Shown: in pieces, positions 1 through 33,992 of the stretch | Layout of the letters: every line of letters begins with the position of its first letter | Position numbering within the stretch: position 1 is the stretch's first letter | DNA from: Deltaproteobacteria bacterium | Lineage (GTDB): Bacteria; Desulfobacterota; Dissulfuribacteria; Dissulfuribacterales; JALVPX01 | Direction of reading: 5' to 3' | NCBI GenBank assembly: GCA_027023445.1 | Contig: JALVVK010000126.1 | Span: 4,740-68,739 of the forward strand | Length of the DNA: 64,000 bases | Translations under genes and position numbers: made by a program | The notes under the pieces: model-generated | The model's input: the letters and a program-made list of their open reading frames with translations, nothing else | Database searches by the model: none | What the model was told of the DNA's origin: nothing

Positions 1-619
1 CGTCTTGTCTGTTTCGGCTGATTTATGATGAAAAGATGCGGGAACAGAGATAACGAAGAAAAAAAAGAATCCTATTGATGCTGCCAGATAACCGTGGAAC
101 AAAGCCATAGAAGACCACCTCCCCCCATCCTCCAGGCTGAGTCTGAGGAATCCTCCTTAAGGTTAATAGCACATCGAAGAAACATGTATCAGCAACGGAT
201 TCCATACATATTCAGGTATTCCGTCACTATCAATTTATTATGATCTTAAATGTATCAGGCGGCCGAGTAAAGGCTATTCCGCGGATAAAATACGGAATGT
301 CCAAACTGACACCGAAAGAGACAGGAAACAAGTTTGCGCCATTTTTCAACTTGAAACAACATTTATGGTTAAGGATGCACTTAACTATCGCTATTTACTG
401 AGTAATAAGTCAAATAAACGATTTGTTCCATATTGAAACTTGAATTGGACACAAACAAACCGGGGCAATTCTTGCCATTACGACATAACTAACTATTTTT
501 ATTAATTTTTATCAATAACTCATACCCATAAACATCCTATGCCCCCATCCAGACACCCCTACATGGATCATTCTAAAAATAGCCTTTTATTTTAATAAGT
601 TATTTTTATAAAATACTCA

Positions 620-635
620 TGGCATCTTCATTGCT
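620..635 (+). promoter_or_regulatory. Candidate sigma-54 (-24/-12) promoter TGGCAT-N5-TTGCT
   Basis: The sequence tGGcatcttcattGCt at 620-635 has GG and GC spaced exactly as in the consensus TGGCAC-N5-TTGCW. It lies in a 1-kb non-coding stretch upstream of a co-directional gene cluster, and a sigma-54 activator gene lies at the far end of that cluster. Confidence 0.5.
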
Positions 636-1010
636 GTACCTTCGCGTGCAACGACCTGAGACCTTTGAATATTACAATCAGTACAAAGCCCAAATTGCTC
701 TTTCCAGAAAAAGGAAGGACATTGGTCTCAGGACCGGTTGCCTTTATTCAAAATTTTTTTAAGGGGGTAGAAGGATGAAATGACCAAAGAGACTTTCCTA
801 AACAAGACTGTGGAGCAACGATGGAAACCGGGAATCATTTATCAATGCGTGACACGGAACATGTCTCCGCGTCACTCACCACCCAGACAGTGGTCCTTTA
901 CGCTCAAGCACTGCCTGGCGGGACGCCTGATAACTTATGGTTTCCGGGCAGGATCAATGTAGCCAGGACACGAAAAGGTTTCAAAAAACATTCTTGGAGG
1001 TTGAAAAGTT

Positions 1011-1943
1011 ATGTGGCACATGTACCTTCCGATAGCAGGAAACAGCGTAAACATCCTGACCGTTTTGGGTCTAGGGGGATTTGTTGGCCTTTTGTCCGGA
1101 ATCTTCGGTGTCGGTGGCGGTTTTCTGATGACGCCGCTTCTTATCATGTTCGGAATTCCACCTACGGTGGCAGCGGCATCTGATTCAAATCAGATAGTGG
1201 GAGCATCCACCTCAGGAACCCTGGCACACTGGAGGCTTGGAAACGTAGATGTCAAGATGGGAATACTGCTTCTCATAGGCGGTGTTTTCGGTGGAACAGT
1301 AGGTGTCCAGATCATCAAAATTTTAAGGGCGCTGGGCAATGCCGATTTTTTGATCAATATTACCTACGTGCTCATGCTCGGCGGCGTGGGCGCATATATG
1401 TTCATGGAAAGCCTCCAGGGCCTTAAAAAGGAAAAGGCCGGAGCAGTTTCCTCACAGGAGGCTCCAAAAAGCGAATCCACATATGCCCGCATGCTGAAGG
1501 CCCTGCCCTTTCAGTCCAGGTTTGATAAGTCAGGGGTGGAAATCTCACTTATTCTTCCATTCTTTTTCGGCACCCTGGTTGGAGTACTCGCAGCCATCAT
1601 GGGCGTTGGCGGAGGTTTCATCATGGTTCCGGTCATGGTTTATCTTCTTCGCATGCCCATGCATGTGGTCGTCGGCACCAGTCTGTTCCAGATTCTTTTT
1701 ACATGCATGAATGTTACTATCATGCAGTCAGTGAGCAATCATACTGTTGATTTTGTATTAGCGGTTTTACTTCTTCTCGGTTCCACCATCGGCGCCCAGG
1801 TCGGTACAAAAATCAGCAAACGTCTTAAAGGCGATCAGCTGAAAATACTCCTTGCCTGCCTGGTATTACTTATGTGCTTCAAGATGTTAGCAGGCCTTTT
1901 GCTGACTCCCCACATCATGTTAGCCTACAAAGGAGGTCATTAA
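1011..1943 (+). CDS. TauE/SafE (DUF81) family anion-exporter-like membrane permease
   Basis: The ORF is 310 aa, with GGAGG about 10 nt upstream of the ATG. It is polytopic and hydrophobic. An internal duplication carries GVGGGFLMTPLL and GVGGGFIMVPVM motifs typical of TauE/SafE permeases. Confidence 0.85.
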   Translation: MWHMYLPIAGNSVNILTVLGLGGFVGLLSGIFGVGGGFLMTPLLIMFGIPPTVAAASDSNQIVGASTSGTLAHWRLGNVDVKMGILLLIGGVFGGTVGVQIIKILRALGNADFLINITYVLMLGGVGAYMFMESLQGLKKEKAGAVSSQEAPKSESTYARMLKALPFQSRFDKSGVEISLILPFFFGTLVGVLAAIMGVGGGFIMVPVMVYLLRMPMHVVVGTSLFQILFTCMNVTIMQSVSNHTVDFVLAVLLLLGSTIGAQVGTKISKRLKGDQLKILLACLVLLMCFKMLAGLLLTPHIMLAYKGGH

Positions 1944-1944
1944 T

Positions 1945-2697
1945 ATGATTAAAAAATCCTGGTGTTATTTAACTTTGATGCTTATATTTCTGATATACAT
2001 ACCGGCCACGGCTTTCGGCGTCTCCCTGAATCTAAAGCCGCAGGAGGTCCAAATAGGAACCTTCTATGACGGCACAACCGTGGAGGCAACCGGCACAGTC
2101 CCCGCAGACTGCCAGGCAGTGGTTCTTGTCAGAGGGGCAGGAGAAGATGTACATCTGAAAAAAAAGGGGAAAATTGGCGGCCTGCTCTGGATGAACATAG
2201 GCGATGTTACTTTTGAGCATACACCGCGCGTGTATATGATCTATGCGGACGCCGACCTCCCCCCAAGCCTTGATTCTGAGATTGGATTCTCAGCGCTGAA
2301 AAATGTAATAAAAATAAGCCCTGCCGGGGAAAACAAGGATTTTCTGTTCAAGGAATTCGTCAAATTGAAAAAACACTCAGCCCTGTACACGTTTCACGCA
2401 AATGCTATATCATATGGCCCAGCAGAGGGCGGTTCCCGTTCTTTCAAGGTGAGTCTTATCATACCGCCACACATGCATCAGGGAAGCTATACGGTTCAGG
2501 CATTCGCGGTCAGGGATGGTCATGTTGTAGGGAAAGCGGCAAAACCAATGCAACTCAAGCTGACAGGTCTTCCCGCAAAACTCTCCAAACTGGCATTCGG
2601 CCATCCCCTGCTTTATGGTATAATTGCGGCAGGTGTCGCCTTGGCGGCCGGCCTGCTCATAGGAGTGCTGTTCGGGAGCAAGGGCGGAGCCCATTAA
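1945..2697 (+). CDS. Membrane-anchored protein, TIGR02186/Alph_Pro_TM-like partner of TauE-type permeases
   Basis: The ORF is 250 aa and starts 1 nt after the previous stop. It has an N-terminal signal/TM segment and a C-terminal TM (LLYGIIAAGVALAAGLLIGVLF). The family call is from memory of the usual TauE neighbourhood and was not searched. Confidence 0.65.
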   Translation: MIKKSWCYLTLMLIFLIYIPATAFGVSLNLKPQEVQIGTFYDGTTVEATGTVPADCQAVVLVRGAGEDVHLKKKGKIGGLLWMNIGDVTFEHTPRVYMIYADADLPPSLDSEIGFSALKNVIKISPAGENKDFLFKEFVKLKKHSALYTFHANAISYGPAEGGSRSFKVSLIIPPHMHQGSYTVQAFAVRDGHVVGKAAKPMQLKLTGLPAKLSKLAFGHPLLYGIIAAGVALAAGLLIGVLFGSKGGAH

Positions 2698-2776
2698 ATC
2701 CCGAACAGGACATCTCTTTATAAATAAATGGCTTACACCGGACATTTCCGCAGGCATTCACAAATGATCTGCGGAA

Positions 2777-5389
2777 ATGTCCGGGCGAATTCATACAAAA
2801 TGCAGGAGCATCATGAATCTTCTCCGTCGCATAAGACATAAATTCAGCCGCCGGCATGTTGAAGAATATTCCTTTGTCGGAATCTTTAAAAGGTTCCAGG
2901 AAATCGTCGAAATGAACAACCGGTTGCTGGGCCTGATCGCAAGGGCCAATGATAAACTCGGCGGAGACTATATCTTTGACAAACAATATATACGGTCCCT
3001 GTGCGCTGAAATCTCTGACCTCGTACAGAAACTCATATTCAACCTGGACAGCATCGCACCCAAAAAATACAGGGCATTGTACGATGTCTTCAACCGGATT
3101 CAGGAGGACATCGATGAACTTCTGGCAGGCAGGATAGTGCCCCGTGATATCGAACTCATATTGCCCTATGAAAAGATCTCACGGGATATAGTTGAAGCCG
3201 TTGGATCAAAAAACGCTAATCTTGCTGAGATAAAATCTGTTCTGGGATTTCTGATTCCAAGGGGTTTTGCCATAACAACCGCCTCTTTTGAGGCGTTCCT
3301 GAAATACAACCAGCTTGATACCGCCATCAATGAGCTGATCAGCAAGTGGCGGGACGACAAGTTGTCCACCGGAGAAACAGCCAGGGAAATCCAGCAGATG
3401 ATCGGTGCGGGCATAATTCCGTCCGATCTTGAGAAGGCGATCCGGAACGTCCTGGACAGGCTGCCTGACATAGAATGTTTCGCAGTCCGGAGCAGCGCCC
3501 TTGGTGAAGATGGACACCGCAGTTTCGCAGGACAATACAAAAGCATTCTCAATGTTCCCGCGGACAAGATCCCGGAGGCATACAAAAGGGTTTTGGCCAG
3601 CACATACAGTGAAAAGGCCATGGAATACCGAAAAAGTATAGGATTTACCGAGTGGGAAGTGGCCATGGCAGTGGGATGCCAGGAAATGGTAGACGTAAAG
3701 GCCAGCGGGGTGCTTTATACAATGGATCCCAATGCTCCGGGACAAGATATCATGCTGATATCCGCCACCTGGGGGCTTGGCGTCCCAGTGGTGTCTGGTG
3801 AGGCGCCCACAGACCATTTTGTTGTCAGCCGAAAACCTCCCTATAAAATCAAGGAAGTGGATCTGGTTCACAAGGAGACAGAGGTGCTCGCGGAAAAAAA
3901 TGGGGGGACATCCTTGCGTTCATTGTCCAGGGAGAAGAGTGACCAGGTATGCCTGAGTAATAAAAATATAAAACAGATCGCCGAAGCGGGTATTGTTATC
4001 GAAAAATTCTTTAAACGCCCCCAGGATATAGAATTCGGTATAAACAAACAGGGACAGCTCGTTATTCTCCAGGCGCGTCCTCTTGCCATAAAATCCATTG
4101 AGTCTCCCGATGCTTCTGATCTGGCCATGATTTCTACAAAATATCCCGTGATTTTTCGTGACAAGGGGGCAATAGCGCAGAAGGGCGTGGCCTTGGGGAC
4201 CGTGTTTATAGTGAAAGATGAGACGGACCTGCAACATTTCCCTTCCGGGGCCATTCTTGTCTCCAGGTTCGCCTCCCCTATTCTGGCCAAGGTATTGGTA
4301 AGGGCGTCAGGCCTCATCACCGAAGTGGGATCGCCTACAGGACACCTCGCTACCATCGCCAGGGAATACCGGGTCCCAGCGATCATGGGGGCAGAGGGTG
4401 CCACGAAAATCCTTAAAGATGGCCAGGAAATCACCCTGGACGCAGAAGAAAACATTGTTTACCAGGGAATCGTAAAGGAACTGCAGCAGTACAGCCTGAA
4501 ACAGGAAGCCATAGAGGAAACCTATGAATACAGGCTGCTCAGACGCGTGCTCAGAAAAATTGAGCCCCTGAATCTTGTAGATCCCATGGATAAACACTTT
4601 ACCCCTGAGGCATGCAAAACAATGCACGATATCATACGTTTTGTGCATGAGAAGGCAGTAAACGAACTCATAGAATTCAAATACTACAAGCACAGGGATC
4701 AGGGAACCGCCTCCGGCAAGCTGAAATGGAACATACCACTTGACATGGTCATAATCGATATTGGAGGTGGGCTGTCAACGCCCCCTCATAACAAGGTTAT
4801 CCTTCCCGAACAGATAGTTTCAATCCCCATGCAAAGCGTGCTGGAAGGCCTGGCCCGACCCGGGGCCTGGAACAATGATCCCATGTCGGTTGATCTGGGC
4901 AGCTTCATGTCAAGCATGACCCGGACATTTTCAACGCAACTTGCCAGTCCGAGATACGTGGGCCAGAACCTGGCGGTCATTTCCAGGAACTACTCTAACA
5001 TAAGCCTCAGGCTCGGATATCATTTTACCATGGTTGACGCCTACATCTCTGAAAACATAAATGACAATTACGCGTATTTCCGGTTTTTCGGGGGGGTTAC
5101 GGACGAGATGCGGCGTTCAAGAAGGGCAAAACTCCTTGGCAAGGCGCTGGCGCATTTTGACTTTCGCACTGAAATTCATGGAGACCTGGTTGTTGCACGC
5201 ATTAAGAAATTCCCGGAACCCATGATGAGGAAACGGCTTTACATTATTGGCGTTCTTATAGGCTTTTCAAGGCAGCTCGATGTGCGGATGGCAAGCGACC
5301 ACAGCATATCAGAATACCTTGAAAAATTTAAATTGGTTATGGAGGATGATAATGAGAGGGAAAGAGAAAACCAGCATATTGTTACTTGA
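2777..5389 (+). CDS. PEP/pyruvate-binding (PPDK_N ATP-grasp) plus swivel-His domain protein with an unassigned C-terminal domain
   Basis: The ORF is 870 aa. It has an N-terminal dikinase nucleotide-binding signature (GSKNANLAEIK...IPRGFAITTASFEAFL). It has the phospho-His swivel motif GSPTGHLATIAREYRVPAIMG. The last roughly 290 aa do not resemble the PEP-utilising TIM barrel that I know. An alternative start is the ATG at 2813. Confidence 0.85.
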   Translation: MSGRIHTKCRSIMNLLRRIRHKFSRRHVEEYSFVGIFKRFQEIVEMNNRLLGLIARANDKLGGDYIFDKQYIRSLCAEISDLVQKLIFNLDSIAPKKYRALYDVFNRIQEDIDELLAGRIVPRDIELILPYEKISRDIVEAVGSKNANLAEIKSVLGFLIPRGFAITTASFEAFLKYNQLDTAINELISKWRDDKLSTGETAREIQQMIGAGIIPSDLEKAIRNVLDRLPDIECFAVRSSALGEDGHRSFAGQYKSILNVPADKIPEAYKRVLASTYSEKAMEYRKSIGFTEWEVAMAVGCQEMVDVKASGVLYTMDPNAPGQDIMLISATWGLGVPVVSGEAPTDHFVVSRKPPYKIKEVDLVHKETEVLAEKNGGTSLRSLSREKSDQVCLSNKNIKQIAEAGIVIEKFFKRPQDIEFGINKQGQLVILQARPLAIKSIESPDASDLAMISTKYPVIFRDKGAIAQKGVALGTVFIVKDETDLQHFPSGAILVSRFASPILAKVLVRASGLITEVGSPTGHLATIAREYRVPAIMGAEGATKILKDGQEITLDAEENIVYQGIVKELQQYSLKQEAIEETYEYRLLRRVLRKIEPLNLVDPMDKHFTPEACKTMHDIIRFVHEKAVNELIEFKYYKHRDQGTASGKLKWNIPLDMVIIDIGGGLSTPPHNKVILPEQIVSIPMQSVLEGLARPGAWNNDPMSVDLGSFMSSMTRTFSTQLASPRYVGQNLAVISRNYSNISLRLGYHFTMVDAYISENINDNYAYFRFFGGVTDEMRRSRRAKLLGKALAHFDFRTEIHGDLVVARIKKFPEPMMRKRLYIIGVLIGFSRQLDVRMASDHSISEYLEKFKLVMEDDNERERENQHIVT

Positions 5390-5747
5390 TGATGAACCAA
5401 TCGTAAGCAAACGCTTAAAACCATCACTTGAAAAGAGGGGATATGAGGTTGAGGCATTCACAGATGGTTTTTCCGCTCTGCAAAGGATCAAGGAACGCAA
5501 ATTCGACATTGTAGTCACGGATCTGAAGATGGAAGGCATTGATGGTATGCACTTCCTCACTGAGGTAAAGAAAAAATTTCCGGAAACAGAAGTCATCGTC
5601 ATTACGGGCTTTGCAACCATGCAAACGGCAAAGGAGTCCTTCCAGAAAGGTGTGTTCGACTTTCTGGCAAAGCCCTTCAAAATCAAGGAGATCACAGAGG
5701 TTATCAAGCGGGCGGAAAACCGGCAGAGGGAGAGAGCTTCCAAATAA
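5352..5747 (+). CDS. Stand-alone response-regulator receiver (CheY-like)
   Basis: The ATG at 5352 has GGAGG 6 nt upstream. The sequence shows LLLDDEP...VVTDLKMEGIDG...ITGFAT...KPF receiver motifs. The gene overlaps the upstream gene by 38 nt. Confidence 0.85.
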   Translation: MRGKEKTSILLLDDEPIVSKRLKPSLEKRGYEVEAFTDGFSALQRIKERKFDIVVTDLKMEGIDGMHFLTEVKKKFPETEVIVITGFATMQTAKESFQKGVFDFLAKPFKIKEITEVIKRAENRQRERASK

Positions 5748-5767
5748 GCAGCTATAAAAGGTGAAAT

Positions 5768-6562
5768 ATGAAAACAGCGTTGATTTACATAGAAGAAAAC
5801 CTGGCATCAAGTATGGCCTTGAGATACACAAGCAGGCTGGCAAACCTGATCGACTTGGCGCTTCAGGTAATTCACGTGGAAGAGCCCGAAAATAAAAACC
5901 ATTTTGGCACGGGCTGGACCAGGCGTACCTGGGAACATGGCATTGAAGAAGCTGGCCTTCAGGAAGTGGACCGGCTTCTGAAAACCGAAAGGATTGACTG
6001 CCGGTTCCTTGGGAGCCCTGTTGTGCGCGTGGGAGACAGGGACTCGGAATTGCTTTCCGAGATGAGCCATCACCCCTACAATCTCTACATCGAAGGCAGG
6101 CTGAATACGGCAAGCGTTCGCGATTTTTACTCACTTCTCGGCAGCCGCCTGTATCGCAAAATGACCTGTCCCTCCCTTATAGTCAAAAATCTGGTTCCTA
6201 TTGACAGGGTATTATTGCTTGCCGCCGAGGGAGTGGATCCTGATCAGCTTACCTCTTGTTTTTCCAGGCTGTTTGACCCGGAATCCATACCGGTTGATCT
6301 GCTTTATTTTCATTTCCAGGAAAACGATTCACCTGTCTGGGAACAGGAACATGAGATGGCAGACTACCTGAATGAGATCATAACGCCACTGGCGGACAAG
6401 GGATGGAACATCGAAAAAAAACAGGTGGTGCGAGGTACCCCGGAGAAGGTAGCGGATCTCCTGAGGGATTATGGCCTGGTAGTCAGTACATTTCCCACCC
6501 GGAAATGCCCCCATTACGAATTGCTGGCCATGCTCCCGAATCCCATATTAATATGTAAATAA
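5768..6562 (+). CDS. Tandem universal-stress-protein-like (USP) domain protein
   Basis: The ORF is 264 aa and starts 20 nt after the receiver gene. It has two halves with a USP-like layout (ALIYIEEN...VIHVEEP; CPSLIVK; VLLLAAEG...PILIC). The match is weaker than for the next gene. Confidence 0.55.
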   Translation: MKTALIYIEENLASSMALRYTSRLANLIDLALQVIHVEEPENKNHFGTGWTRRTWEHGIEEAGLQEVDRLLKTERIDCRFLGSPVVRVGDRDSELLSEMSHHPYNLYIEGRLNTASVRDFYSLLGSRLYRKMTCPSLIVKNLVPIDRVLLLAAEGVDPDQLTSCFSRLFDPESIPVDLLYFHFQENDSPVWEQEHEMADYLNEIITPLADKGWNIEKKQVVRGTPEKVADLLRDYGLVVSTFPTRKCPHYELLAMLPNPILICK

Positions 6563-6647
6563 TCACAACTGGACTTGAGAAATATTTTTATAAAATCATG
6601 TCATGTCCCCTGGCCGGAAAGACCGGACGGGGGAAAGGAGAATCGCC

Positions 6648-7514
6648 ATGAAGATGCTGGTTCCTGTAGATACCAATCCATACAGTGCGGTAGCCGCCCG
6701 CAAGGCGGCAAAACTGGCCATTAATACCTGGGCCGATGTTACCATCTTAGGGATACAGACAGCCGGAAGCGCCGCCAACAATATGCCGGACGCCGCCCTG
6801 TCTTCAGCGATGTCAGCTTATTGCAAGGCATTTCTCAGTAATGCGGGGGAGATGGAGTCTCCTTATGGAGATGGTGAGCCCGCCCCGTGGCGCGCCACGG
6901 GAAATGGAGTCTGGGAGACCTCCATTGCTTCCGAGACGGCAAAAAAATCTTTGCGCCTTATGGTCAAAAAAGGCAGTACACTTGACATGATCCTTGAACA
7001 GGCTGCGCAGGATGGATCTGATTTTATTGTTATTGGCTCGCCCGCAAAGGTAGCCGATCCTGGCTGGACAGGAGAGCTGGATCTTACCGCCAAGGTGGCA
7101 AACAAGGCCCCATGTTCCGTTCTCGTAGTTAAGGAAGAAAAATCGGTGAATACCGTTATGGGCATCCTGGACCAGGACCATGTCAGCCAGGAATCACTGG
7201 AACTGATCAATCAGATGGTGACCGTTCATCAGGCGGAATTAAAAATCGTCGGCCTGGCAACGGCCAAGGGCTTGGATGAACGCGTTGAGATGAAGATGGG
7301 AGAGGTCCTGGATTATTATGCCTCAAAGGGGGTCAAGGCCTGGATCACCATGGTAAAAGAAAATGAGATGGAGGATTTTGCCGCCCGTGCCGCGGAGACA
7401 AGTCTTGTAGGGATCTGGCTTGGCAAAAAATCTTTCCTGGCCAAGATCTTTTCCAAAGACAGGGTGAGCCAGTTGATCAACGCAACCAATTCATCTGTGC
7501 TGGTTCTTAAATAG
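6648..7514 (+). CDS. Tandem universal stress protein family protein
   Basis: The ATG at 6648 is preceded by AAGGAG. USP hallmarks are present (KMLVPVDTNPYS..., DFIVIGSP..., APCSVLVVK, SSVLVLK) in two repeats. Confidence 0.7.
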   Translation: MKMLVPVDTNPYSAVAARKAAKLAINTWADVTILGIQTAGSAANNMPDAALSSAMSAYCKAFLSNAGEMESPYGDGEPAPWRATGNGVWETSIASETAKKSLRLMVKKGSTLDMILEQAAQDGSDFIVIGSPAKVADPGWTGELDLTAKVANKAPCSVLVVKEEKSVNTVMGILDQDHVSQESLELINQMVTVHQAELKIVGLATAKGLDERVEMKMGEVLDYYASKGVKAWITMVKENEMEDFAARAAETSLVGIWLGKKSFLAKIFSKDRVSQLINATNSSVLVLK

Positions 7515-7594
7515 ACCGTTGCTGGCGCGATTCAGGATTATCCCGGATTACACTACCCTTTTGGACCGGGGGGCTCGGTAATCCTGGCGCCCCC

Positions 7595-8998
7595 TTACAG
7601 ATCTTCACCGGACTTCGCACTTTTGTGGCTGCGTATCTTTTTATCTGTTGTGTCCTTGGTAATAAGCCCGTATTTTTTCATGCGGCGCCATAGAGTGGTT
7701 CTCGGCAGATTCAGGATCCTGCTGCTCAGATTTTTATTAAAGCCTGTATGTTCCAGCACCCTGCGAATGTGATGCTTTTCAACCTCTTCAAGGCTTAACA
7801 GCTCGTTGCCTGAAAGGCATTTCAATATTCTCTGGTGCAGGTCTTCCGGCAGATCCTTTACGTACAATTCATCGTCATCCGTCAGGGCGACCGCCCTCTG
7901 GATTATGTTCTCCAGCTCACGGACATTACCGGGAAAATTGTAGGTCATCAGGATCTGGAGTGCGGCAGGGGATATGCGCCTTACCTGTTTGGAAAACGCG
8001 ACATTATACTTCTCAATAAAATGCGAGATCAACAGGGGAATGTCTTCCGCTCTGTCAGCAAGCCTGGGCAACTGAATATTTACAACATTCAGACGGAAAA
8101 AAAGGTCCTTTCTGAAGGTACCATTTTGTATATCCGCCTCCAGATCACGATTAGTGGCCGCAATAATACGTATGTCAAGGTCCATGGGACGAGTACCGCC
8201 CACACGAAGGACCTGACGCTCCTGGAGAACATGCAACAGCTTGACCTGCATGCTCTGGGGCATTTCACCGATTTCGTCCAACAAGACAGTTCCGCCGGCA
8301 GCAGTCTCAAACAATCCTTTCTTAAAGGTGGTCGCCCCTGTAAACGCCCCTTTTTCATGGCCAAAAAGCTCGCTGCATATCAATTCGTCGGTAAAACCGC
8401 CACAGTTAAAGTAAACAAAGGGCTGATCTCTCCTGGGGCTAAGGTTATGAATCGCCCTTGCGACCAGTTGTTTACCTGTACCCGTCTCCGCCTGAATCAG
8501 CACGTTACAGTTGACCAGGGCCACCTTTTTGATAAGAGCGAAGATCTCCCTTATAGCCTCGCTTTTACCAATAAAACCTGGAATAGGACTGTCCGTACCA
8601 AGCGCCAGGCGGAGTCTTCGGTTTTCCTCATTCAATTCAATTTTTTCCCTGGCCCTCCGGGCAAGTAAACGGATATCATGCCGCCTGCATGGCTTGGTAA
8701 CATAATGAAAAGCGCCATTTTTAGTGGCCTCAACAGCGGTTTCAATGGAGCCATGGCCTGTCACCATTATAGCCTCTGTATCCTCAAATGCCTGTTTTAA
8801 GAGTTTAAGTACCTCAAGGCCATCCATGTCAGGCAATTTCAGATCTATGAACGCAATATGGAACGGAAATTCCTTCATGCGAGACAGAAAAACGCGACCA
8901 GAAGGAAAGGTTTCTACCTCGAACCCATCCTGCTCAAGAATCCTTTTTATATGACGACAGGCCGTAGCCTCATCGTCAATTACTGCTATCCGTATCAT
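7595..8998 (-). CDS. Sigma-54-dependent response regulator (NtrC/AtoC family)
   Basis: It has a receiver domain (IAVIDDE...DLKLPDMDG) and an AAA+ domain with the GETGTGK Walker A and the GAFTGA sigma-54 contact loop. It ends in a C-terminal Fis-type HTH. I set the start at the ATG at 8998 ([10 protein letters not shown]), which overlaps the kinase gene by 23 nt. Confidence 0.92.
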   Translation of the reverse strand: MIRIAVIDDEATACRHIKRILEQDGFEVETFPSGRVFLSRMKEFPFHIAFIDLKLPDMDGLEVLKLLKQAFEDTEAIMVTGHGSIETAVEATKNGAFHYVTKPCRRHDIRLLARRAREKIELNEENRRLRLALGTDSPIPGFIGKSEAIREIFALIKKVALVNCNVLIQAETGTGKQLVARAIHNLSPRRDQPFVYFNCGGFTDELICSELFGHEKGAFTGATTFKKGLFETAAGGTVLLDEIGEMPQSMQVKLLHVLQERQVLRVGGTRPMDLDIRIIAATNRDLEADIQNGTFRKDLFFRLNVVNIQLPRLADRAEDIPLLISHFIEKYNVAFSKQVRRISPAALQILMTYNFPGNVRELENIIQRAVALTDDDELYVKDLPEDLHQRILKCLSGNELLSLEEVEKHHIRRVLEHTGFNKNLSSRILNLPRTTLWRRMKKYGLITKDTTDKKIRSHKSAKSGEDL

Positions 8999-10424
8999 CT
9001 TTTTTAATCCCGAGTGTCTCAGCATCATTGGCGATTGGCAGGTAAATTATGAAGGTTGTACCAATATTTTCCTTGCTCTTCACCTCTATATAACCACCAT
9101 GTTTCTTGATTATTCCATAAACAATGGACAAACCCAGTCCGGTACCCTTCCCTACCGGCTTGGTGGTAAAAAATGGTTCAAATATATGCTCAAGTTTTTC
9201 CGCAGGTATTCCCTTACCAGTGTCGGAAAAACGGATTATTACGTAACCGTTCCTTGCTTCTCCATGAACATCTATAAGGCCGCCATCAGAGATGGCATGC
9301 ATTGAATTCAAAAACAAATTCACAAACACCTGCTGAAGCTTCTGCGCATCTCCCCGAATGAGCGGAAGTGATTCAGGAATATAATCTTCAAACTCAATAT
9401 GCTGTATTTTCAATTGATTACGCACCAAGTCCGCTGACTTCCTCACAACATCCTTTATGTTCAACAACTGGCTGGACGGAGGGCTTTTGCGACAAAAATC
9501 AAGCAGGTTACGCACCACAAGGCTTGCCCTTTCATCTTCATCAATAATATCCTGAATCATTTCAAGGATCTCCTCGCGGGACAGGGTATCGTATTCTTCC
9601 AGCAAGGTGTCGGCAGTTAATGATATGTTGTTAAGCGGGTTGTTAAGCTCATGGGCTATCCCGGAAGAAAAAGTACCGATGGCCGCAAGTTTTTTGGCCT
9701 GAAGGAGTTGTTCCTGCTTATTGTCAATTTCCTCTACCATCTTATTAAATGCCTGTATAAGGCTTGAAATTTCATCTGTTCCTGACGCGTTTTCCTTAAT
9801 AGGGACGAATTGGCCAAGGGCTACGGCCCTGGTTGCCTTCTGCACCTTGGCAAGACGTCTGAGGATATTTTTGGTCTGCACGTGAAACACCAGCAGGATA
9901 AACATGAATCCACCTGCGGTTGCCATAATGAAGCCATACATGGTTAAATGCAGTTTTTTATGAATACTTTCTCTCTTGGCTTTCAGAAGTTGATCCGTAA
10001 AATCGACCAGCCTTTTGCCCAGTTTGCGTATCTCCTCTATGTTGGCATTGGAAATTCGGGGATGACCCTCAATAAGCTTTTCATATTGTTTGATTGTATA
10101 CTGAAAATTCAAAAACTCCTTTTTCCCCATGGTGGTCAGGAGTTCCCTCGAAAAATAGTTCGTATCCTTGTTGATGGCATACAGATAATGCGCTATCTGA
10201 TGCAGGGAGTGGGGGTCATGTTCATAAAGAAAATTTTTTTCAAACCGCCTCAGCTCCAGAACATTATTGGAAAGCTTGTAAATATCCTCCATCATGTAGA
10301 AATCTGACTTCAACGCCGAGATGTTCAGGGCATAGACGGTCGCAAGGCATACTGCGAAAAGAAAAACCACCGCGAAAATCAGCAGAAGCCTGTGCCTTAT
10401 GGTGCTGTTAAAAAACATTTCCAA
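8976..10424 (-). CDS. Membrane sensor histidine kinase (HAMP-HisKA-HATPase)
   Basis: The ORF is 482 aa with two TM segments. It has the H-box [13 protein letters not shown], an N-box NLFLNSMHA and G-boxes DTGKGI / GTGLGL. It is cognate to the downstream sigma-54 regulator. Confidence 0.9.
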
Positions 10425-10632
10425 CCTTTTAAACTAACCAGAAACCATATCAAAAAGTTGTCAGGCTCGGTCAACACGGCAAAAGACAACAAATCTATTT
10501 CTAACAGAATTAAAAATATAATCCAAATTAAACGAATATGCCATGAGACCTAATTGTTTTTTGATCAGCAAGGTGGAGATAAAGGATAAAAATAGTAAAT
10601 CAAGGAATCCAGCCACCTTGTCCTGAAGACGT

Positions 10633-11286
10633 TCACCGGTTTATATCTTTTTTCAGGGTGATAAACCTCTCCAGCATGTTGTGCCAGTAAGGGGCCCCCA
10701 CACTGATCATGCACGCAGTGAGAAGCCGTTCAACAACATCTATATGCTGGATGTTAGGTTCCCACATCTGGAATTCCGCCCCGGAGGCCGAAAAAAATTT
10801 GTTCATAATGGAAAAGGCATTGATTCGCAGGCACAGGCAGAGAAGAAGACTGACCGCAAACGAGGTCATCAGCATGCCTTTCTTTATCTTCCCCCCTGCC
10901 ATCTTCAGCACCTGATCTATCTTGCTGAAAATCTCGCTCTCATGTTTAATCCTGAGCCTGTATCTTTCAAGGTAGGCCAGGAATCCTTCCGGATCTTTTC
11001 GAAACAATTCAGGAAGGTCTTTCTTCGTGATCTTGGAAAAATCGGATTCAGATGAAGAAGTAATATCCCTGTCCTTCGTGATCTTGGAAGAATCGGATTC
11101 GGATGAAGAAGTAATATGGATGTCTTCAAGACTGAGTTTTGCCTGATTCATCGCATCAACCACCGGATTTAAAAAGACAGTGCGCGCGATAAACAAATTT
11201 TTAAGGCTGGTATTGATAGATTTTACTATTATACACAATACTGTCATCCAGATAAAAAAGGCTATCGATGCGTCTAACAAGGGCAT
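10633..11286 (-). CDS. Hypothetical membrane protein with an in-frame 17-aa tandem repeat
   Basis: The ORF is 217 aa with N-terminal and central hydrophobic segments. The repeat reads DI(H)ITSSSESD(S/F)SKITK. I recognise no family. Confidence 0.5.
   Translation of the reverse strand: MPLLDASIAFFIWMTVLCIIVKSINTSLKNLFIARTVFLNPVVDAMNQAKLSLEDIHITSSSESDSSKITKDRDITSSSESDFSKITKKDLPELFRKDPEGFLAYLERYRLRIKHESEIFSKIDQVLKMAGGKIKKGMLMTSFAVSLLLCLCLRINAFSIMNKFFSASGAEFQMWEPNIQHIDVVERLLTACMISVGAPYWHNMLERFITLKKDINR
11026..11127. repeat. Tandem duplication, 2 x 51 bp, inside the hypothetical membrane-protein gene
   Basis: Units 11026-11076 and 11077-11127 share cgtgatcttggaa(a/g)aatcggattc(a/g)gatgaagaagtaatat. 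There are 2 mismatches over the first 41 nt. The period of 51 nt keeps the reading frame. Confidence 0.8.
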
Positions 11287-11487
11287 TGGGCGCTGCCTCC
11301 CTGGTAAAAAATTGACAGAAGACCTATTACTTCTTTTTTAGCATAAACAGCCTTGCCAGAACAGGGGGAATATGGTTTGGCCGGCGTTTCAGGCTCACTG
11401 CCTTGAGGCCAGGATCATCCAGGCGCATGTTTCAGTGACCAGTGCGTCCCCCGCAAAAACGGTGACAGGCACGGGATTACCTCATCA

Positions 11488-11516
11488 TTGACATACCAGA
11501 GGCATGTGTATATAAG
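11488..11516 (+). promoter_or_regulatory. Candidate sigma-70 promoter (TTGACA-17-TATAAG)
   Basis: TTGACA lies at 11488-11493, followed by a 17-nt spacer and TATAAG at 11511-11516. It faces ddl and would give a leader of about 270 nt. Confidence 0.35.
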
Positions 11517-16687: not shown

Positions 16688-18421
16688 TCACTCCCTGATT
16701 GAATGACTGTTCATTACCTCTTCCATTTGGTCTTTTGCCCATTTCAGACCCGGATCCAGTTCCAGGGCCATGCGGTACCAGACAACAGCCGCTTCTCCCA
16801 TACCCATCGCCCTGAGGTTACTGGCAATATTAGCGTAATCAATGGCAGAGCCGGGGTCAATATTAATTGCCTGCTCAAAGGCCTCGATTGCCTCAACATG
16901 TCTTCCGGTCTTGAATAAACAATATCCCATGAGATTAAAAATTTCCTTGAGGTTGGGGTTCATTTCCCGGGCCTTTTGAAGCTGCTCAAGCGCGGGAGCG
17001 TACTCACCGAGCTCCTTTAAACAAAGCCCCTTATGACAATAAATGCTGGCAAGCTCCCCCGAATCCGGATCAAGATCCAGCGCTTTTTCATACCACTTCA
17101 GCGCATCCGGATAACGCCCGGCCTTCTCCAGCACATGCCCCATATAAAAGGCCACATCGTATCTCTCTGGATAAACCTCACAAATTAAACCCAGCGTCCT
17201 GATTCCATGCTCAGGGGTGCCAAAGGTGGCGGCAATCCTTGCCGCATGAAATGCCAGATCCATGTTTATGGTCCTGTCACGAAAATGATTACCCGGAATT
17301 ACCACGTACACGGCAGGCACATTTAAAACAGGATGCGTGACATCAACCAGAAGGGGATTCAGGCCCGATTCTGACAAAACATGACAGGCGTTTTCCACCT
17401 CAGTCCGAAAATTGTCATGGCTGCAGTTGGGAAGATCATCCAGGCCAACCGTGGTAGAAGACTCAAGGACATAAGCAGCCTCGGCCAGGGTTCCAAACTT
17501 GGGAAGACCGCTTTCCACATAGCTGCCCTCCGTATCAAAATCTCCGGCAAGCTGAGCCACCTCTGTCAGAGCTCGTATCAATGCCCTTTCCGGATGCGTT
17601 GCGGTACCCGCCGTATATACAATCTCACTCCTGCTCGGATACGTGGCAGGATCCCATGCAATAACTCCCACAGTAGGAACTCCAAGCCCCAGGCTGAAAT
17701 CCTTCAGTACCACGTTCACCCCTGCCGCGCTGAATCTGTCAAGCAACAGCCTTGCATCCCCATCCGGTACCGAATCAGGATTAATAGTGGGAACACTGAG
17801 CCTCTCATAGGTAATCATGGAACATACATGACGTTCCACCACCTCACAAAGACCCTGAACAGCTGCCTCTTCCAGGGAATTACCGGCAGCCGCTCCGTTG
17901 TATTCATTAATTGGCCAGAACCAGGAAAAAGGCATATAGCACCACCTGGCCAATGAAGGCGAATAGGCTCTCACCCACTCCATGGGCAGTAAACGGACAA
18001 GCTCCTTCTCCTCCATCGAAGGCTCCGCCCCAAGGTGCAGGGCGGAAAGCATCTGCCCAAGCTCCAGGGCATCGGCTCCCAAATCCTTCATGGTGCAATT
18101 TCTGCGTACGCCTTCCCTGAGAAAACTGAAGATACTGAAACGCTCAACCAGCTCCATCACAGCGCTGGCCTTGGCCTGTTCAGGGGTAACCCCCTTGCCC
18201 ATCTGCCTGGCGGATCCGGTCAACCGGGTAGCTCCTGGCGAATAACGGCTCACATACACAGGAATACCAAGCCTTCCCTTATCAACCCTTCTGACTTCTT
18301 CGAGAACAGGCACATCCAGAGCGGAGAAACGGCTGTACACCCAGTCCAGGGTCTCAGCCGGACCTCTTGCCTTATCAAATCTTATTCCAGATTCCTTAAA
18401 GCTGTCTTTTAAAAACGTCAT
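16688..18421 (-). CDS. YcaO-domain protein with C-terminal TPR repeats
   Basis: The ORF is 577 aa. The N-terminal 400 aa show YcaO hallmarks (GKGVTPEQAKASAVMELVERFS...). The C-terminal roughly 170 aa are canonical 34-aa TPR units (AFYMGHVLEKAGRYPDALKWYEKALDLDP, and so on). Confidence 0.9.
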   Translation of the reverse strand: MTFLKDSFKESGIRFDKARGPAETLDWVYSRFSALDVPVLEEVRRVDKGRLGIPVYVSRYSPGATRLTGSARQMGKGVTPEQAKASAVMELVERFSIFSFLREGVRRNCTMKDLGADALELGQMLSALHLGAEPSMEEKELVRLLPMEWVRAYSPSLARWCYMPFSWFWPINEYNGAAAGNSLEEAAVQGLCEVVERHVCSMITYERLSVPTINPDSVPDGDARLLLDRFSAAGVNVVLKDFSLGLGVPTVGVIAWDPATYPSRSEIVYTAGTATHPERALIRALTEVAQLAGDFDTEGSYVESGLPKFGTLAEAAYVLESSTTVGLDDLPNCSHDNFRTEVENACHVLSESGLNPLLVDVTHPVLNVPAVYVVIPGNHFRDRTINMDLAFHAARIAATFGTPEHGIRTLGLICEVYPERYDVAFYMGHVLEKAGRYPDALKWYEKALDLDPDSGELASIYCHKGLCLKELGEYAPALEQLQKAREMNPNLKEIFNLMGYCLFKTGRHVEAIEAFEQAINIDPGSAIDYANIASNLRAMGMGEAAVVWYRMALELDPGLKWAKDQMEEVMNSHSIRE

Positions 18422-31991: not shown

Positions 31992-32411
31992 TTGAAAGTG
32001 GCATACCGAAAGACACAAATAACAGGAATAATCACCTGTCTTATGTTATTGATAACAGGCGTAGCTCACGCCTCAGACACCATAGTCGGCACAGTGACCT
32101 CGGTTAATCTGGACCAGAAACGGTTAGGCATTGAGGTTATCCGGACGGATTCAAAAAAATTTCCTGCGGGAACCATTATTTACCTGGAGGCGACTGACAT
32201 CGGGCAGATCAAAAAGGGCCAGGCTGTCAGGGCTACCGTATCCTGCACAAGAGGAAAAAATATCTGCAGGGTAAAGGAAATCAACCTGCTTAAAAGATGC
32301 TGGTGTAAAGACAGAACAGGTGTCAGATACCGTCTTAACAGGGCCTGGCATCACAGAAGATGGTCTGGCCGCCATATCCGCAGCTGTCCTAGGTGGCACC
32401 GTGGCCGATAG
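31992..32411 (+). CDS. Small secreted protein, first gene of the HK/sigma-54 RR operon
   Basis: The ORF is 139 aa with a TTG start after AAGGATGG. It has a signal peptide (ITCLMLLITGVAHA-SD). The last roughly 35 aa are Arg/Trp/His-rich and overlap the kinase ORF out of frame, so the true C-terminus is uncertain. Confidence 0.5.
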   Translation: MKVAYRKTQITGIITCLMLLITGVAHASDTIVGTVTSVNLDQKRLGIEVIRTDSKKFPAGTIIYLEATDIGQIKKGQAVRATVSCTRGKNICRVKEINLLKRCWCKDRTGVRYRLNRAWHHRRWSGRHIRSCPRWHRGR

Positions 32412-33990
32412 AGACACAGGGACAAAATCTTTCCCAAGGCTCGCCTCCTGGCAGGGGAACGCCCTGGTCTTCGGAATCCTTTTTCTCGTGGTAGTCGCCT
32501 ACTTCATGTTCCAGGTACAGAATGCCCACAGGATGTTTATCAAGGATGCGGAAAACCATGCCAGACTCGTTGCAGATATTATCCGGGTCCATGCAAGGGG
32601 CACTGTACTCTCGGAACAGATTATCCGGACCACACTCAAGACCTTTCTGGGTAACACCACAAGATTTGTGAAATATCTGAATGCCATTGAACCCTTTGAC
32701 TCCGATGAGCTCACCGCCTTTGCCAAGGAATCAGGACTCGCGGGCATCAGTATTTTTTACCCGGACGGCACGGCAATTCACGGGCCCAGGGGATGGCTTG
32801 ACGGTATAAAGATAAAAGATTTAAAGGGCAACCGCCTGCTTCATTTTCCTGACAGGCATCTCATAGTCCTTGCAAGCCCGCTCAACACGGGGAAAGGATA
32901 CGTGGCGGCAGGTATCAGGGCGGAAAAAACAGAACTACTGCAAAAAGAAATCGGGCTGCCACAGACATTCAGGGCCATGGAACAGATCGAGGGAATCCGG
33001 TATATCCGGCTGGACAAGAATATTAAAAATCCGGCTGCCGCACACAGATCCATGCCTGGCAGGATAAAGATCATAAAATCCGGTAAGGATCTTGTGGCAG
33101 AGATCAAAATGCCCCTTGATATCGGGTTACTCACAGTGGGGCTTGATGCCCAGCCGCTTGAAAAAATCAGGAGAGACCTGTGGAGGGACTTTATTATATT
33201 CAGCATCCTGCTGGCAATTCTGGGTTCCACGCTGTCCTGGTTCCTCTACAGACATCAGGCAAGATATGTCAACCAGGTAAAGGAATATGAAAGACAGATT
33301 TCCAGGCAGAGGGAAGAGGCATCCCTTGGCCGGGCAGCGGCATCCATCGCCCACGAGATAAGGAATCCTTTAAACGCCATGGCCATGGGGCTTCAACGCC
33401 TGAAGATAGAGGCAACATGTCTTTCCGGAGAGCAGAAAAGGCTCATTGACATCGTTCTTGACTCCCTTAAACGGACAAACGGAATCGTAACCGGACTTCT
33501 CCGGTATGCTGGCATGTCTGAACCCTCGCTCAAACTGGGACAGGTTGATCTAATGGCCATGATCTCAGACGCCGTGACGCTTTACGAAAAACAGATGGAA
33601 CAGGCTGGAATACGGCTTGAAATGGACCTGGATTCCGGCAGACCCGTCACGGCAGATCCCGACCTTCTATCCCAGGTACTGGACAACCTGCTCCGAAACG
33701 CCATGGAGGCGCAGCCCCGGGGGGGATTCATACACATCTCCCTGAAGGCACGTCCTGAAACAATGGTTCTTACCATGAGAAACGGGGGCCATGTTCCACG
33801 CCCCGACCAGGCCGGGCAGCTTCTTGAGCCGTATTTTACCACGAAAACCCGGGGAACCGGCCTTGGCCTTGCCGTGTCAAACAGAATAGTACGGGCCCAT
33901 GGAGGCAAAATCACGCTCAACCTTCGAAAGGATGTATTCGAGGTAAAGGTGGAGCTCCCCCTGAACGGCCAGCACAGCAGGAAAGGATAA
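32320..33990 (+). CDS. Membrane sensor histidine kinase
   Basis: It has two TM segments flanking a roughly 230-aa extracytoplasmic domain. It has the H-box AASIAHEIRNPLNAM, the N-box DNLLRNAMEA and the G-box GTGLGLAV. The start is either the GTG at 32320 or the GTG at 32401 (after AGGTGG). Confidence 0.88.
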   Translation: MSDTVLTGPGITEDGLAAISAAVLGGTVADRDTGTKSFPRLASWQGNALVFGILFLVVVAYFMFQVQNAHRMFIKDAENHARLVADIIRVHARGTVLSEQIIRTTLKTFLGNTTRFVKYLNAIEPFDSDELTAFAKESGLAGISIFYPDGTAIHGPRGWLDGIKIKDLKGNRLLHFPDRHLIVLASPLNTGKGYVAAGIRAEKTELLQKEIGLPQTFRAMEQIEGIRYIRLDKNIKNPAAAHRSMPGRIKIIKSGKDLVAEIKMPLDIGLLTVGLDAQPLEKIRRDLWRDFIIFSILLAILGSTLSWFLYRHQARYVNQVKEYERQISRQREEASLGRAAASIAHEIRNPLNAMAMGLQRLKIEATCLSGEQKRLIDIVLDSLKRTNGIVTGLLRYAGMSEPSLKLGQVDLMAMISDAVTLYEKQMEQAGIRLEMDLDSGRPVTADPDLLSQVLDNLLRNAMEAQPRGGFIHISLKARPETMVLTMRNGGHVPRPDQAGQLLEPYFTTKTRGTGLGLAVSNRIVRAHGGKITLNLRKDVFEVKVELPLNGQHSRKG

Positions 33991-33992
33991 AC

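Follow-up and report, generated by a model that had tools for sequence, protein, structure and literature searches.

We analysed a 64,000-nucleotide stretch of contig JALVVK010000126.1 from a Deltaproteobacteria bacterium (assembly GCA_027023445.1), referred to here as the window. It carries a block of eight genes: a six-gene operon behind a sigma-54 promoter encodes a permease, its membrane partner, an 870-aa dikinase-like enzyme, a CheY-like receiver and two proteins resembling universal stress proteins (USPs), and beside it lie the genes for a sensor histidine kinase (HK) and an NtrC-type sigma-54 activator (bEBP). The gene calls were made from the open reading frame (ORF) listing of the window together with Pfam and NCBIfam scans. 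The features of the block, in window coordinates, are the following.

343-357: upstream activator site 1, TTTTCAACTTGAAAC, a putative binding site of the activator with one mismatch to GTTTCA-N3-TGAAAC
425-439: upstream activator site 2, GTTCCATATTGAAAC, likewise a putative binding site of the activator, exactly 82 bp from site 1
620-635, + strand: sigma-54 (-24/-12) promoter TGGCAT-N5-TTGCT, TGGCATCTTCATTGCT, found by motif search
636-1010, + strand: leader of about 375 nt between promoter and TauE gene, with a terminator-like hairpin at about 648-741 and then a T-run
1011-1943, + strand: gene for a TauE/SafE (TSUP) family permease (PF01925, 171.4 bits)
1945-2697, + strand: gene for an Alph_Pro_TM bitopic membrane partner (PF09608, 135.6 bits)
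2777-5389, + strand: gene for an 870-aa PPDK/PpsA-like His-swivel phosphotransferase (PPDK_N 271 bits, PEP-utilizers 69 bits)
5352-5747, + strand: gene for a single-domain CheY-like receiver (PF00072, 104.9 bits)
5768-6562, + strand: gene for USP-like A, a divergent tandem USP-like protein of 264 aa, recognised by profile comparison
6648-7514 (ORF open from 6603), + strand: gene for USP-like B, a tandem USP-like protein (PF00582, 1e-9)
7595-9028, - strand: gene for the NtrC-type sigma-54 activator (Sigma54_activat 227.8 bits, HTH_8, Response_reg)
8976-10424, - strand: gene for the membrane sensor HK (HAMP, HisKA, HATPase_c)

The six operon genes are co-directional, with gaps of 1, 79, -38, 20 and 85 nt in order, and the activator and HK genes converge on them. 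Alternative starts are available at 2813 for the enzyme gene and at 5346 for the receiver gene. The start of USP-like B was placed at 6648 because M16 is invariant in the ortholog alignment, and this start gives the gap of 85 nt to USP-like A. The initial annotation, made from the sequence without database searches, had given the same strands and gaps, all of which match the ORF listing, while its count of seven genes was in error: the operon has six in the window, and that account itself listed five gaps and six names. Two leader ORFs (619/631-762 and 780-935) were considered as a seventh gene and rejected, as tblastn found no homologue of them in the 80 related loci described below.

Thousands of full-length relatives of the 870-aa enzyme were found, and a scan of one genome per GTDB species detected a relative encoded in 224 genomes. 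The carriers are Desulfobacterota and Nitrospirota. The best 80 of the 224 loci (47-56% identical), from the Desulfobacterales, Desulfobulbales, Desulfatiglandales, Desulfarculales, Syntrophobacterales and Nitrospirota, were used as the synteny set and searched by tblastn with every window protein. Among the evaluable loci the receiver was present in 78/78, the Alph_Pro_TM partner in 76/76, the permease in 71/71, USP-like A in 64/73 and USP-like B in 58/64, so that the gene grouping put forward in the initial annotation is syntenic in related genomes. The order and strand of the operon genes were uniform across these loci, with median gaps of 1, 33, -4, 52 and 45 nt. Of the 60 loci in which this could be judged, 50 had an orthologue of the activator (55-71% identical) linked to the module. 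In 46 of them it lay upstream and in three downstream, each time on the strand of the operon, and in one it lay downstream but inverted. HK orthologues (40-53% identical) were located directly 5' of the activator gene with a median overlap of 4 nt. The view that the HK/activator pair belongs with the gene cluster was thereby borne out.

The convergent arrangement of the window is shared by its closest relative, L084 (assembly GCA_011682485.1), in which the flanking genes are wholly different, and L086 (61% identity) has the common arrangement of the HK/activator pair. In the window, L084 and L086 alike the module lies between unrelated flanks, and no conserved neighbours beyond the module were found in the related loci. 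Occasional neighbours were an SLC13/TrkA-C permease (7/80 loci) and a cytidylate-kinase-like protein (8/80); an SLC13/TrkA-C permease apparently flanks the module in Dissulfuribacter thermophilus too (DITHS69_1984). Given the conserved synteny and the unrelated flanks, the eight genes travel as a unit, and the module is conserved and mobile as a block. A search of the literature yielded no paper describing an enzyme-receiver-permease module, in agreement with the earlier impression that the combination is undescribed.

The sequence TGGCATCTTCATTGCT is the sole match to TGGCAY-N5-TTGCW on both strands of the 64-kb window, where 0.23 matches would be expected by chance, and it is found in the correct intergenic region and on the correct strand for the operon. 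Promoter and palindrome counts were made on the 68 related loci with sufficient upstream DNA. The strict sigma-54 motif was present upstream of TauE in 46 of these, and also in L084, and a relaxed GG-N10-GC motif was present in 55/68. The claim of one sigma-54 promoter ahead of the operon thus holds, and by its uniqueness and recurrence the predicted site at 620-635 is not a chance match.

A search for shared gapped palindromes upstream of the promoters recovered GTTTCA-N3-TGAAAC, which occurs with at most two mismatches in 62/68 loci, mostly as two copies about 82 bp apart, and with the copies 75-390 bp upstream of the promoter. With at most one mismatch, just 14 matches were found outside the upstream region in 1.33 Mb of loci. 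The window sites at 343-357 and 425-439 are two of the three palindrome matches in the entire 64 kb, and palindromes were also found in L084 and L086. Sites were detected in 54 of 59 loci with an activator orthologue, as compared to two of nine loci without one. We infer that the activator binds the paired palindromes, which together with the predicted -24/-12 promoter are the anatomy expected for an NtrC-type regulon. The co-occurrence of palindromes and activator also points to the adjacent HK/activator pair as the cognate one, and not to a second such pair that we observed at 32320-35324 (+ strand). The activator of the second pair has 443 aa and is 39.5% identical to the module activator, and neither a strict sigma-54 promoter nor a GTTTCA-N3-TGAAAC site was found near that pair. 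The initial annotation had described the converging activator as the only one nearby; the converging pair does belong to the module, but it is not the only pair in the window.

The activator shows the features of the NtrC family, with a receiver domain (REC; PF00072, 91.3 bits), an AAA+ domain (PF00158, 227.8 bits) in which GAFTGA is intact in the translation, and HTH_8 (PF02954, 50.2 bits). The HK has a transmembrane (TM) segment, an extracytoplasmic domain of about 125 aa, a second TM segment, and HAMP, HisKA and HATPase_c domains; its sensor domain gave a weak match to 4HB_MCP_1 (E 0.0027). In the leader (window 648-760, + strand) a hairpin is formed by CCUGAGACC...GGUCUCAGG within UGCAAC...GUUGC and is followed by a U-rich run; from its sequence it looks like a terminator or attenuator. 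The overall fold of the leader had a z-score of -1.07, and apart from the activator sites no nucleotide conservation of the leader was seen across the related loci. A riboswitch or known RNA was rejected for positions 1-11500, where Rfam yielded one chance miRNA match (E 0.22). Between USP-like B and the converging activator gene no convincing terminator structure was found (z-score 0.62). We hold it to be very probable that the architecture and regulation are as described here.

The 870-aa enzyme consists of an N-terminal helical region (1-125), an ATP-grasp domain (140-441), a mobile His domain (488-558, with His523) and a C-terminal domain (about 566-870). Its ATP-grasp motifs and T-G-H523 are invariant in 21 homologues, and with an ATP-grasp domain and a mobile domain carrying the catalytic His it belongs to the PEP-utilising superfamily. 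Databases and published annotations name it a phosphoenolpyruvate (PEP) synthase: the best NCBIfam matches are PEP synthase models, RAST assigns EC 2.7.9.2 (PMC7117923 Table S1; PMC13490349), and it has been filed as a gluconeogenic PEP synthase in PMC7117923 (Table S1) and PMC13490349 (Table 2). If that were right, the neighbouring genes would be unrelated to it. However, PEP-utilizers_C (PF02896), the PEP/pyruvate-binding TIM barrel, was absent in the Pfam scan, and the enzyme falls below every NCBIfam cut-off (TIGR01418 322.5 vs 739.75 bits; NF005057 333.7 vs 598), with the TIGR01418 alignment covering only model positions 1-467 of 784. The rifampin phosphotransferase model NF041857 (247 vs 999 bits) likewise matched only the N-terminal domain of the enzyme. 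The C-terminal 300 aa have a different fold, modelled with confidence, and the linkage to TauE, partner and receiver is invariant. The PEP synthase reading is effectively refuted; judged by its domains, the enzyme is not a PEP synthase, and as it has no PEP/pyruvate domain the inferences on gluconeogenesis in PMC7117923 and PMC13490349 need revisiting.

The C-terminal domain is as conserved as the catalytic domains. It had no Pfam match and no relative among PDB sequences in a profile search. A first AlphaFold model reached a predicted local distance difference test score (pLDDT) of 67, and a second one, from 36 diverse sequences, a pLDDT of 85 and a predicted TM-score (pTM) of 0.74. Searched with Foldseek against 350,542 PDB chains, the model gave no match below E 0.01, and no rifampin phosphotransferase or PPDK chain was among the 50 best Foldseek matches listed. 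At 33-55% identity D618, H749, F770, G772, G773, R780, R783 and D835 are invariant, and H617, H624, E625, R782 and R832 nearly so; the invariant residues suggest an active site, or a binding site, for a ligand that is anionic. The domain was found in 1,333 clusters of a library of 1.84 billion representative proteins, and in full-length members it stands at the C terminus of proteins of about 850-870 aa. This C-terminal acceptor domain is new to the dikinase superfamily. The initial annotation, which called the enzyme dikinase-like, missed both the new acceptor domain and the receiver as a constant partner.

The permease matches PF01925 with 171.4 bits against a gathering cut-off of 32.6, over profile positions 2-237 of 237, and it is by far the most conserved component of the module (69-85% identical in relatives). 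It starts with a conserved M-x-H-(L/M)-YLPIAGNS and ends in ...KGGH-COOH (window 1932-1943), the GGH being kept in 75/76 orthologues. The partner has an N-terminal signal/anchor, an extracytoplasmic domain of about 190 aa and a C-terminal TM segment, and ends in ...G(A/G/S)H-COOH (window 2686-2697) in 76/77 orthologues. No relative of the partner was found among PDB sequences by profile search. Its earlier description as TIGR02186-like is valid at the Pfam level (PF09608, 135.6 vs 24.5 bits) but not at that of the NCBIfam equivalog TIGR02186 (53 vs 255.25 bits). The His tails of the two proteins could be a metal site, a docking tag for the enzyme or a phosphoryl acceptor.

Enzyme and receiver genes overlap, with 38 nt shared in the window and a median of 4 nt in relatives, and the canonical receiver residues (DD, D, T, K) are readable in the window translation. 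In three separate representative clusters (P0149, P0166 and P0167) a receiver is fused to the C terminus of the enzyme. P0149 (L088:3119-6082) shares 41% identity with the enzyme of the window over 818 residues, and the identity between its fused receiver and that of the window is 42%. We also examined the contexts of eight distant members of the enzyme family, L087 to L094, which were as follows.

L087: short contig, uninformative
L088: TauE, Alph_Pro_TM, then the P0149 fusion, then a second free receiver; no USP genes
L089: USP0 (described below)-TauE-partner-enzyme-receiver, then two further paralogous enzymes
L090 (1601-7588): divergent bEBP beside CBS-DASS(Na_sulph_symp)-CBS-enzyme
L091: TauE-enzyme-cytidylate-kinase-like-HK-receiver
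L092: TauE-partner-Usp-...-HK-receiver, divergent from enzyme-receiver
L093 (4173-11557): HK-receiver-enzyme, convergent with a YedE(Sulf_transp)-TusA-DsrE-like cluster
L094: receiver-enzyme-enzyme-HK-receiver

A single-domain receiver was adjacent or fused to the enzyme in seven of the eight members, and an HK was close by in five. In L091, L092, L093 and L094 the receiver and HK are the constant neighbours of the enzyme and there is no bEBP. TauE adjoins the enzyme in L088, L089, L091 and L092, and permeases for anions or sulfur compounds (TauE, DASS, YedE) are common companions of the family. The simplest reading of minimal HK-receiver-enzyme triads, which are free of any other response regulator, is that the enzyme is a two-component output reached through the CheY-like receiver, and on this gene-context evidence we lean slightly towards control of the enzyme by the receiver.

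Several side observations were made on the enzyme family. Paralogues with the same C-domain often lie beside the module, sometimes in tandem (L002, L012, L013, L070, L089, L094). In L002 (100-4563) a paralogue comes with a TauE-like gene and a receiver of its own, and with an unrelated bitopic membrane protein of 229 aa that ends in ...LEH. A general 'paralogous TauE core' was considered and rejected, since it was clear in L002 only and the other paralogues were in varied contexts. The YedE-TusA-DsrE-like cluster of L093 resembles the 'YTD' cluster, which is discussed as a marker of sulfur disproportionation.

The same observations on the receiver and the His tails could be read differently, with the enzyme acting as a signalling kinase in an ATP-driven phosphorelay: phospho-His523 would pass its phosphoryl group to the receiver Asp, or to the C-terminal His of TauE or its partner, and thereby gate the permease. 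The receiver is always adjacent, translationally coupled and in some members fused, and in the window it has the canonical DD, D, T and K residues; the Gly-Gly/Ala-His-COOH ends recur in 75/76 TauE and 76/77 partner orthologues, and the pocket of invariant, Arg-rich residues in the C-domain is a possible binding site for a terminal carboxylate. A precedent exists in Mycobacterium tuberculosis, where VadK (Rv1127c), a regulatory kinase derived from PPDK, phosphorylates itself on His (PMC13400623). However, a canonical HK is present in nearly every context, including the minimal triads, so that a second phosphodonor is not needed, and DASS and YedE permeases also occur beside members of the enzyme family. 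We consider such a relay rather unlikely.

USP-like A had no Pfam match, but was similar over its full length to the USP-like B family (hhalign probability 93.6%, E 2e-7), and its profile matched the PDB entry 3fg9 weakly (E 0.1). USP-like B was recognised by PF00582 (39.5 vs 24 bits); its N-terminal half matches USP structures, and the best PDB match of the family profile is TeaD (3hgm; 9.5e-8). Of the 'two USPs' named in the initial annotation, the second is therefore a USP by Pfam, whereas the first is USP-like by profile comparison only. In both families the consensus lacks the G-x2-G-x9-G(S/T) ATP motif; the description of these proteins as nucleotide-binding is thus not supported and has become doubtful. 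In 33/80 relatives promoter and TauE are separated by an additional operon gene, USP0 (146-158 aa, Pfam Usp 1e-13), for example at L038:7041-7508 and L009:7753-8226, and the promoter is then at about -480 from TauE. By tblastn no remnant of USP0 was found in the window leader (636-1010), so the window either lost USP0 or never had it.

Published expression data are available for probable relatives of the module. In Dissulfuribacter thermophilus the consecutive genes DITHS69_1988 ('PEP synthase'), DITHS69_1989 ('TM protein co-occuring with TauE') and DITHS69_1990 (TauE) were up by log2 3.40, 1.79 and 1.56, respectively, in thiosulfate disproportionation as compared to H2 plus sulfite (PMC13490349). 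These are co-regulated probable orthologues linked to a sulfur-disproportionating, energy-poor state. As they are higher with thiosulfate than with H2 plus sulfite, they do not fit a simple sulfite-detoxifying exporter (PMC13490349). The idea of a sulfite or sulfonate exporter in the initial annotation is still an inferred one, and the new, circumstantial evidence points to inorganic sulfur metabolism. L072 is a contig of Ca. Desulfobulbus rimicarensis, and its partner and enzyme genes match the coordinates in PMC7117923, in which they bear the same RAST names as the D. thermophilus genes and were transcribed in situ with 98 and 47 fragments per kilobase per million (FPKM; Table S1). In Desulfolithobacter dissulfuricans the cluster GF1_10720-10800 encodes an SLC13 permease, a receiver of 119 aa, a response regulator of 408 aa and USP-like proteins, and was detected only or mostly in thiosulfate disproportionation (PMC9751629). 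The thiosulfate-specific proteins GF1_10730, 10760 and 10800 were considered as a copy of the module and rejected, because GF1_10780 is an SLC13 permease and the cluster a different one; it resembles the module in theme, with anion permease, USPs and receiver, but was not used as evidence.

The USP-like proteins and the induction in D. thermophilus also allow a reading as a general stress or energy-starvation module, in which energy limitation would induce the operon, the USP-like proteins and the enzyme would adjust nucleotide or energy status and the permease would be a generic anion channel with no sulfur-specific tie. Three kinds of USP-like proteins accompany the genes, CBS or cytidylate-kinase-like proteins take the place of the USPs in distant contexts, and TeaD, the best PDB match of USP-like B, regulates a transporter. 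Thiosulfate disproportionation is moreover a low-energy condition, which would explain the proteomic induction equally well (PMC13490349). However, a dedicated sensor kinase with an extracytoplasmic domain speaks for a specific signal from outside, no part of the module is less constant than the USP genes (64/73 and 58/64, and absent in L088), and the canonical ATP-binding motif is not conserved in the USP-like proteins. We find this explanation unlikely.

The reading that we prefer, with a probability of about 0.5, is that the eight genes make up a self-contained module of signalling and effector parts, in which the two-component output is branched. The membrane HK (8976-10424) would detect an extracytoplasmic cue. 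In a transcriptional branch it would phosphorylate the activator (7595-9028), which would bind the palindromes at 343-357 and 425-439 and open the sigma-54 promoter at 620-635, giving a single transcript for the six genes at 1011-7514. In a post-translational branch the same HK would phosphorylate the CheY-like receiver (5352-5747), which would control the 870-aa enzyme. The first half-reaction of the enzyme would be PpsA/PPDK-like, from ATP at the ATP-grasp domain to phospho-His523 on the swivel domain, and the phosphoryl group would then pass to an acceptor held by the C-domain (D618, H749, G772, G773, R780, R783, D835). The enzyme would work with the TauE permease and its bitopic partner, and the USP-like proteins would be accessory regulators. 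The acceptor would most likely be a small anion moved by the permease, plausibly a sulfur oxyanion such as thiosulfate or sulfite; this acceptor and the link to sulfur anions are put forward as a tentative possibility.

Several points weigh against the branched module as proposed. In the literature search no experimental work on a member came up. Of the 68 loci, 22 lack the strict sigma-54 motif and 13 the relaxed one, and the 375-nt leader carries a terminator-like hairpin between promoter and TauE. The receiver could be the phospho-acceptor of the enzyme, as adjacency and fusion fit both roles, and the invariant C-terminal His tails are not accounted for by a small-molecule acceptor. No permease lies nearby in L087 and L094 on the available DNA. 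With respect to sulfur, the distribution over sulfur lineages may reflect phylogenetic inertia, and the induction in D. thermophilus could reflect energy limitation and not the sulfur species. DITHS69_1988-1990 were taken as orthologues from their gene order and identical annotation strings and not from sequence, and PMC13490349 gives conflicting tags, DITHS69_1988 and _1161, for A0A1B9F8F1.

A bolder reading, which we think improbable, would make the enzyme a new class, a receiver-coupled ATP-driven His-swivel phosphotransferase with a non-carbon acceptor, either a sulfur oxyanion or the C-terminal His of the TauE pair. With a sulfur oxyanion as acceptor there would be a phosphorylated sulfur intermediate, and thereby an unrecognised ATP-consuming or pyrophosphate/ATP-yielding step in thiosulfate or sulfur disproportionation. 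With the His of the TauE pair as acceptor there would be a phosphorelay resembling the phosphotransferase system (PTS) that gates an anion channel.

Known superfamilies are present throughout the module, yet the acceptor domain is new and the combination of enzyme, receiver and permease is undescribed. The biochemistry of inorganic sulfur disproportionation, and much of the traffic of sulfur anions in sulfate reducers, still await explanation. The module offers a clear on-switch, with sensor kinase, activator, defined motif and promoter, and the defined regulon makes the system directly testable. The corrected annotation of the enzyme alters the interpretations of carbon flux in PMC7117923 and PMC13490349, and the recurrent HK-receiver-enzyme triad suggests a previously unnoticed kind of two-component output.

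As to the rest of the window, a 217-aa ORF just past the HK gene (10633-11286, - strand) has hydrophobic segments and a repeat of 17 residues in tandem (ITSSSESD[S/F]SKITK...), and matched nothing in Pfam or NCBIfam. At 16688-18421 (- strand) lies a gene for a YcaO-domain protein (PF02624, 232 bits) with TPR repeats fused to it. The remaining genes are housekeeping ones, with Ddl, EF-G, acetyl-CoA synthetase, an AddAB-like helicase/nuclease and PAS kinases. Genes of the dsr, apr or sat type were not visible within the 64-kb window, so that the window by itself does not confirm the 'sulfate reducer' of the initial annotation. The PADLOC defence-system models gave just generic receiver matches and one weak 19-bit match, and no defence system.

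In comparison with known systems, we class the module as a two-component/sigma-54 regulon that has a new branch of the His-swivel dikinases as its effector. It resembles the NtrBC, AtoSC and ZraSR systems in its HK with HAMP, HisKA and HATPase domains, its REC/AAA+ (GAFTGA)/HTH_8 activator, and its paired upstream palindromes and -24/-12 promoter. However, all equivalog scores are under the cut-offs (AtoC 412.6 vs 714 bits), the GTTTCA-N3-TGAAAC motif and the regulated genes are specific to this module, and an additional single-domain receiver is encoded in the target operon. With the known pairs of TauE/SafE and TIGR02186/Alph_Pro_TM proteins it shares the Pfam membership of both proteins and their tight adjacency (1-nt median gap). 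It differs from these in that the partner is under the TIGR02186 equivalog cut-off, the pair is encoded together with a dikinase-like enzyme in an operon under sigma-54/two-component control, and both proteins carry invariant C-terminal His tails.

Two further likenesses are analogies of function. The USP TeaD is encoded alongside the transporter TeaABC and modulates it; the USP-like proteins of the module differ from it by being devoid of the canonical ATP motif. In the PTS, the step from enzyme I to EII also places a swivel-His enzyme upstream of a permease, whereas the module enzyme uses an ATP-grasp domain and not PEP, and no HPr or EIIA-like proteins are present in the module.

The closest comparisons for the enzyme are PpsA and PPDK, in which an ATP-grasp domain and a mobile phosphohistidine domain follow in the same order and the motifs GxKxANL, VRSSAxxED, FAGQ, LQxRP and T-G-H are common to them and the module enzyme. 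The latter has no PEP/pyruvate TIM barrel, and adds a conserved N-terminal helical region of about 125 aa and the new C-domain of about 300 aa. VadK, likened here by description, is also a PPDK relative outside central metabolism, but it is reported to interact with methylcitrate-cycle enzymes and not with a receiver or permease, and its lineage and context differ. Rifampin phosphotransferase (RPH), PigC/RedH, phenylphosphate synthase and HpeHI follow the same principle as the module enzyme, with an ATP-grasp domain and swivel His feeding a non-pyruvate acceptor. In RPH and PigC the acceptor domain lies between the ATP-grasp and swivel domains, whereas in the module enzyme it is C-terminal. 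Re-use of the dikinase chassis with a new acceptor module has been described previously (PMC4844700, PMC12167813).

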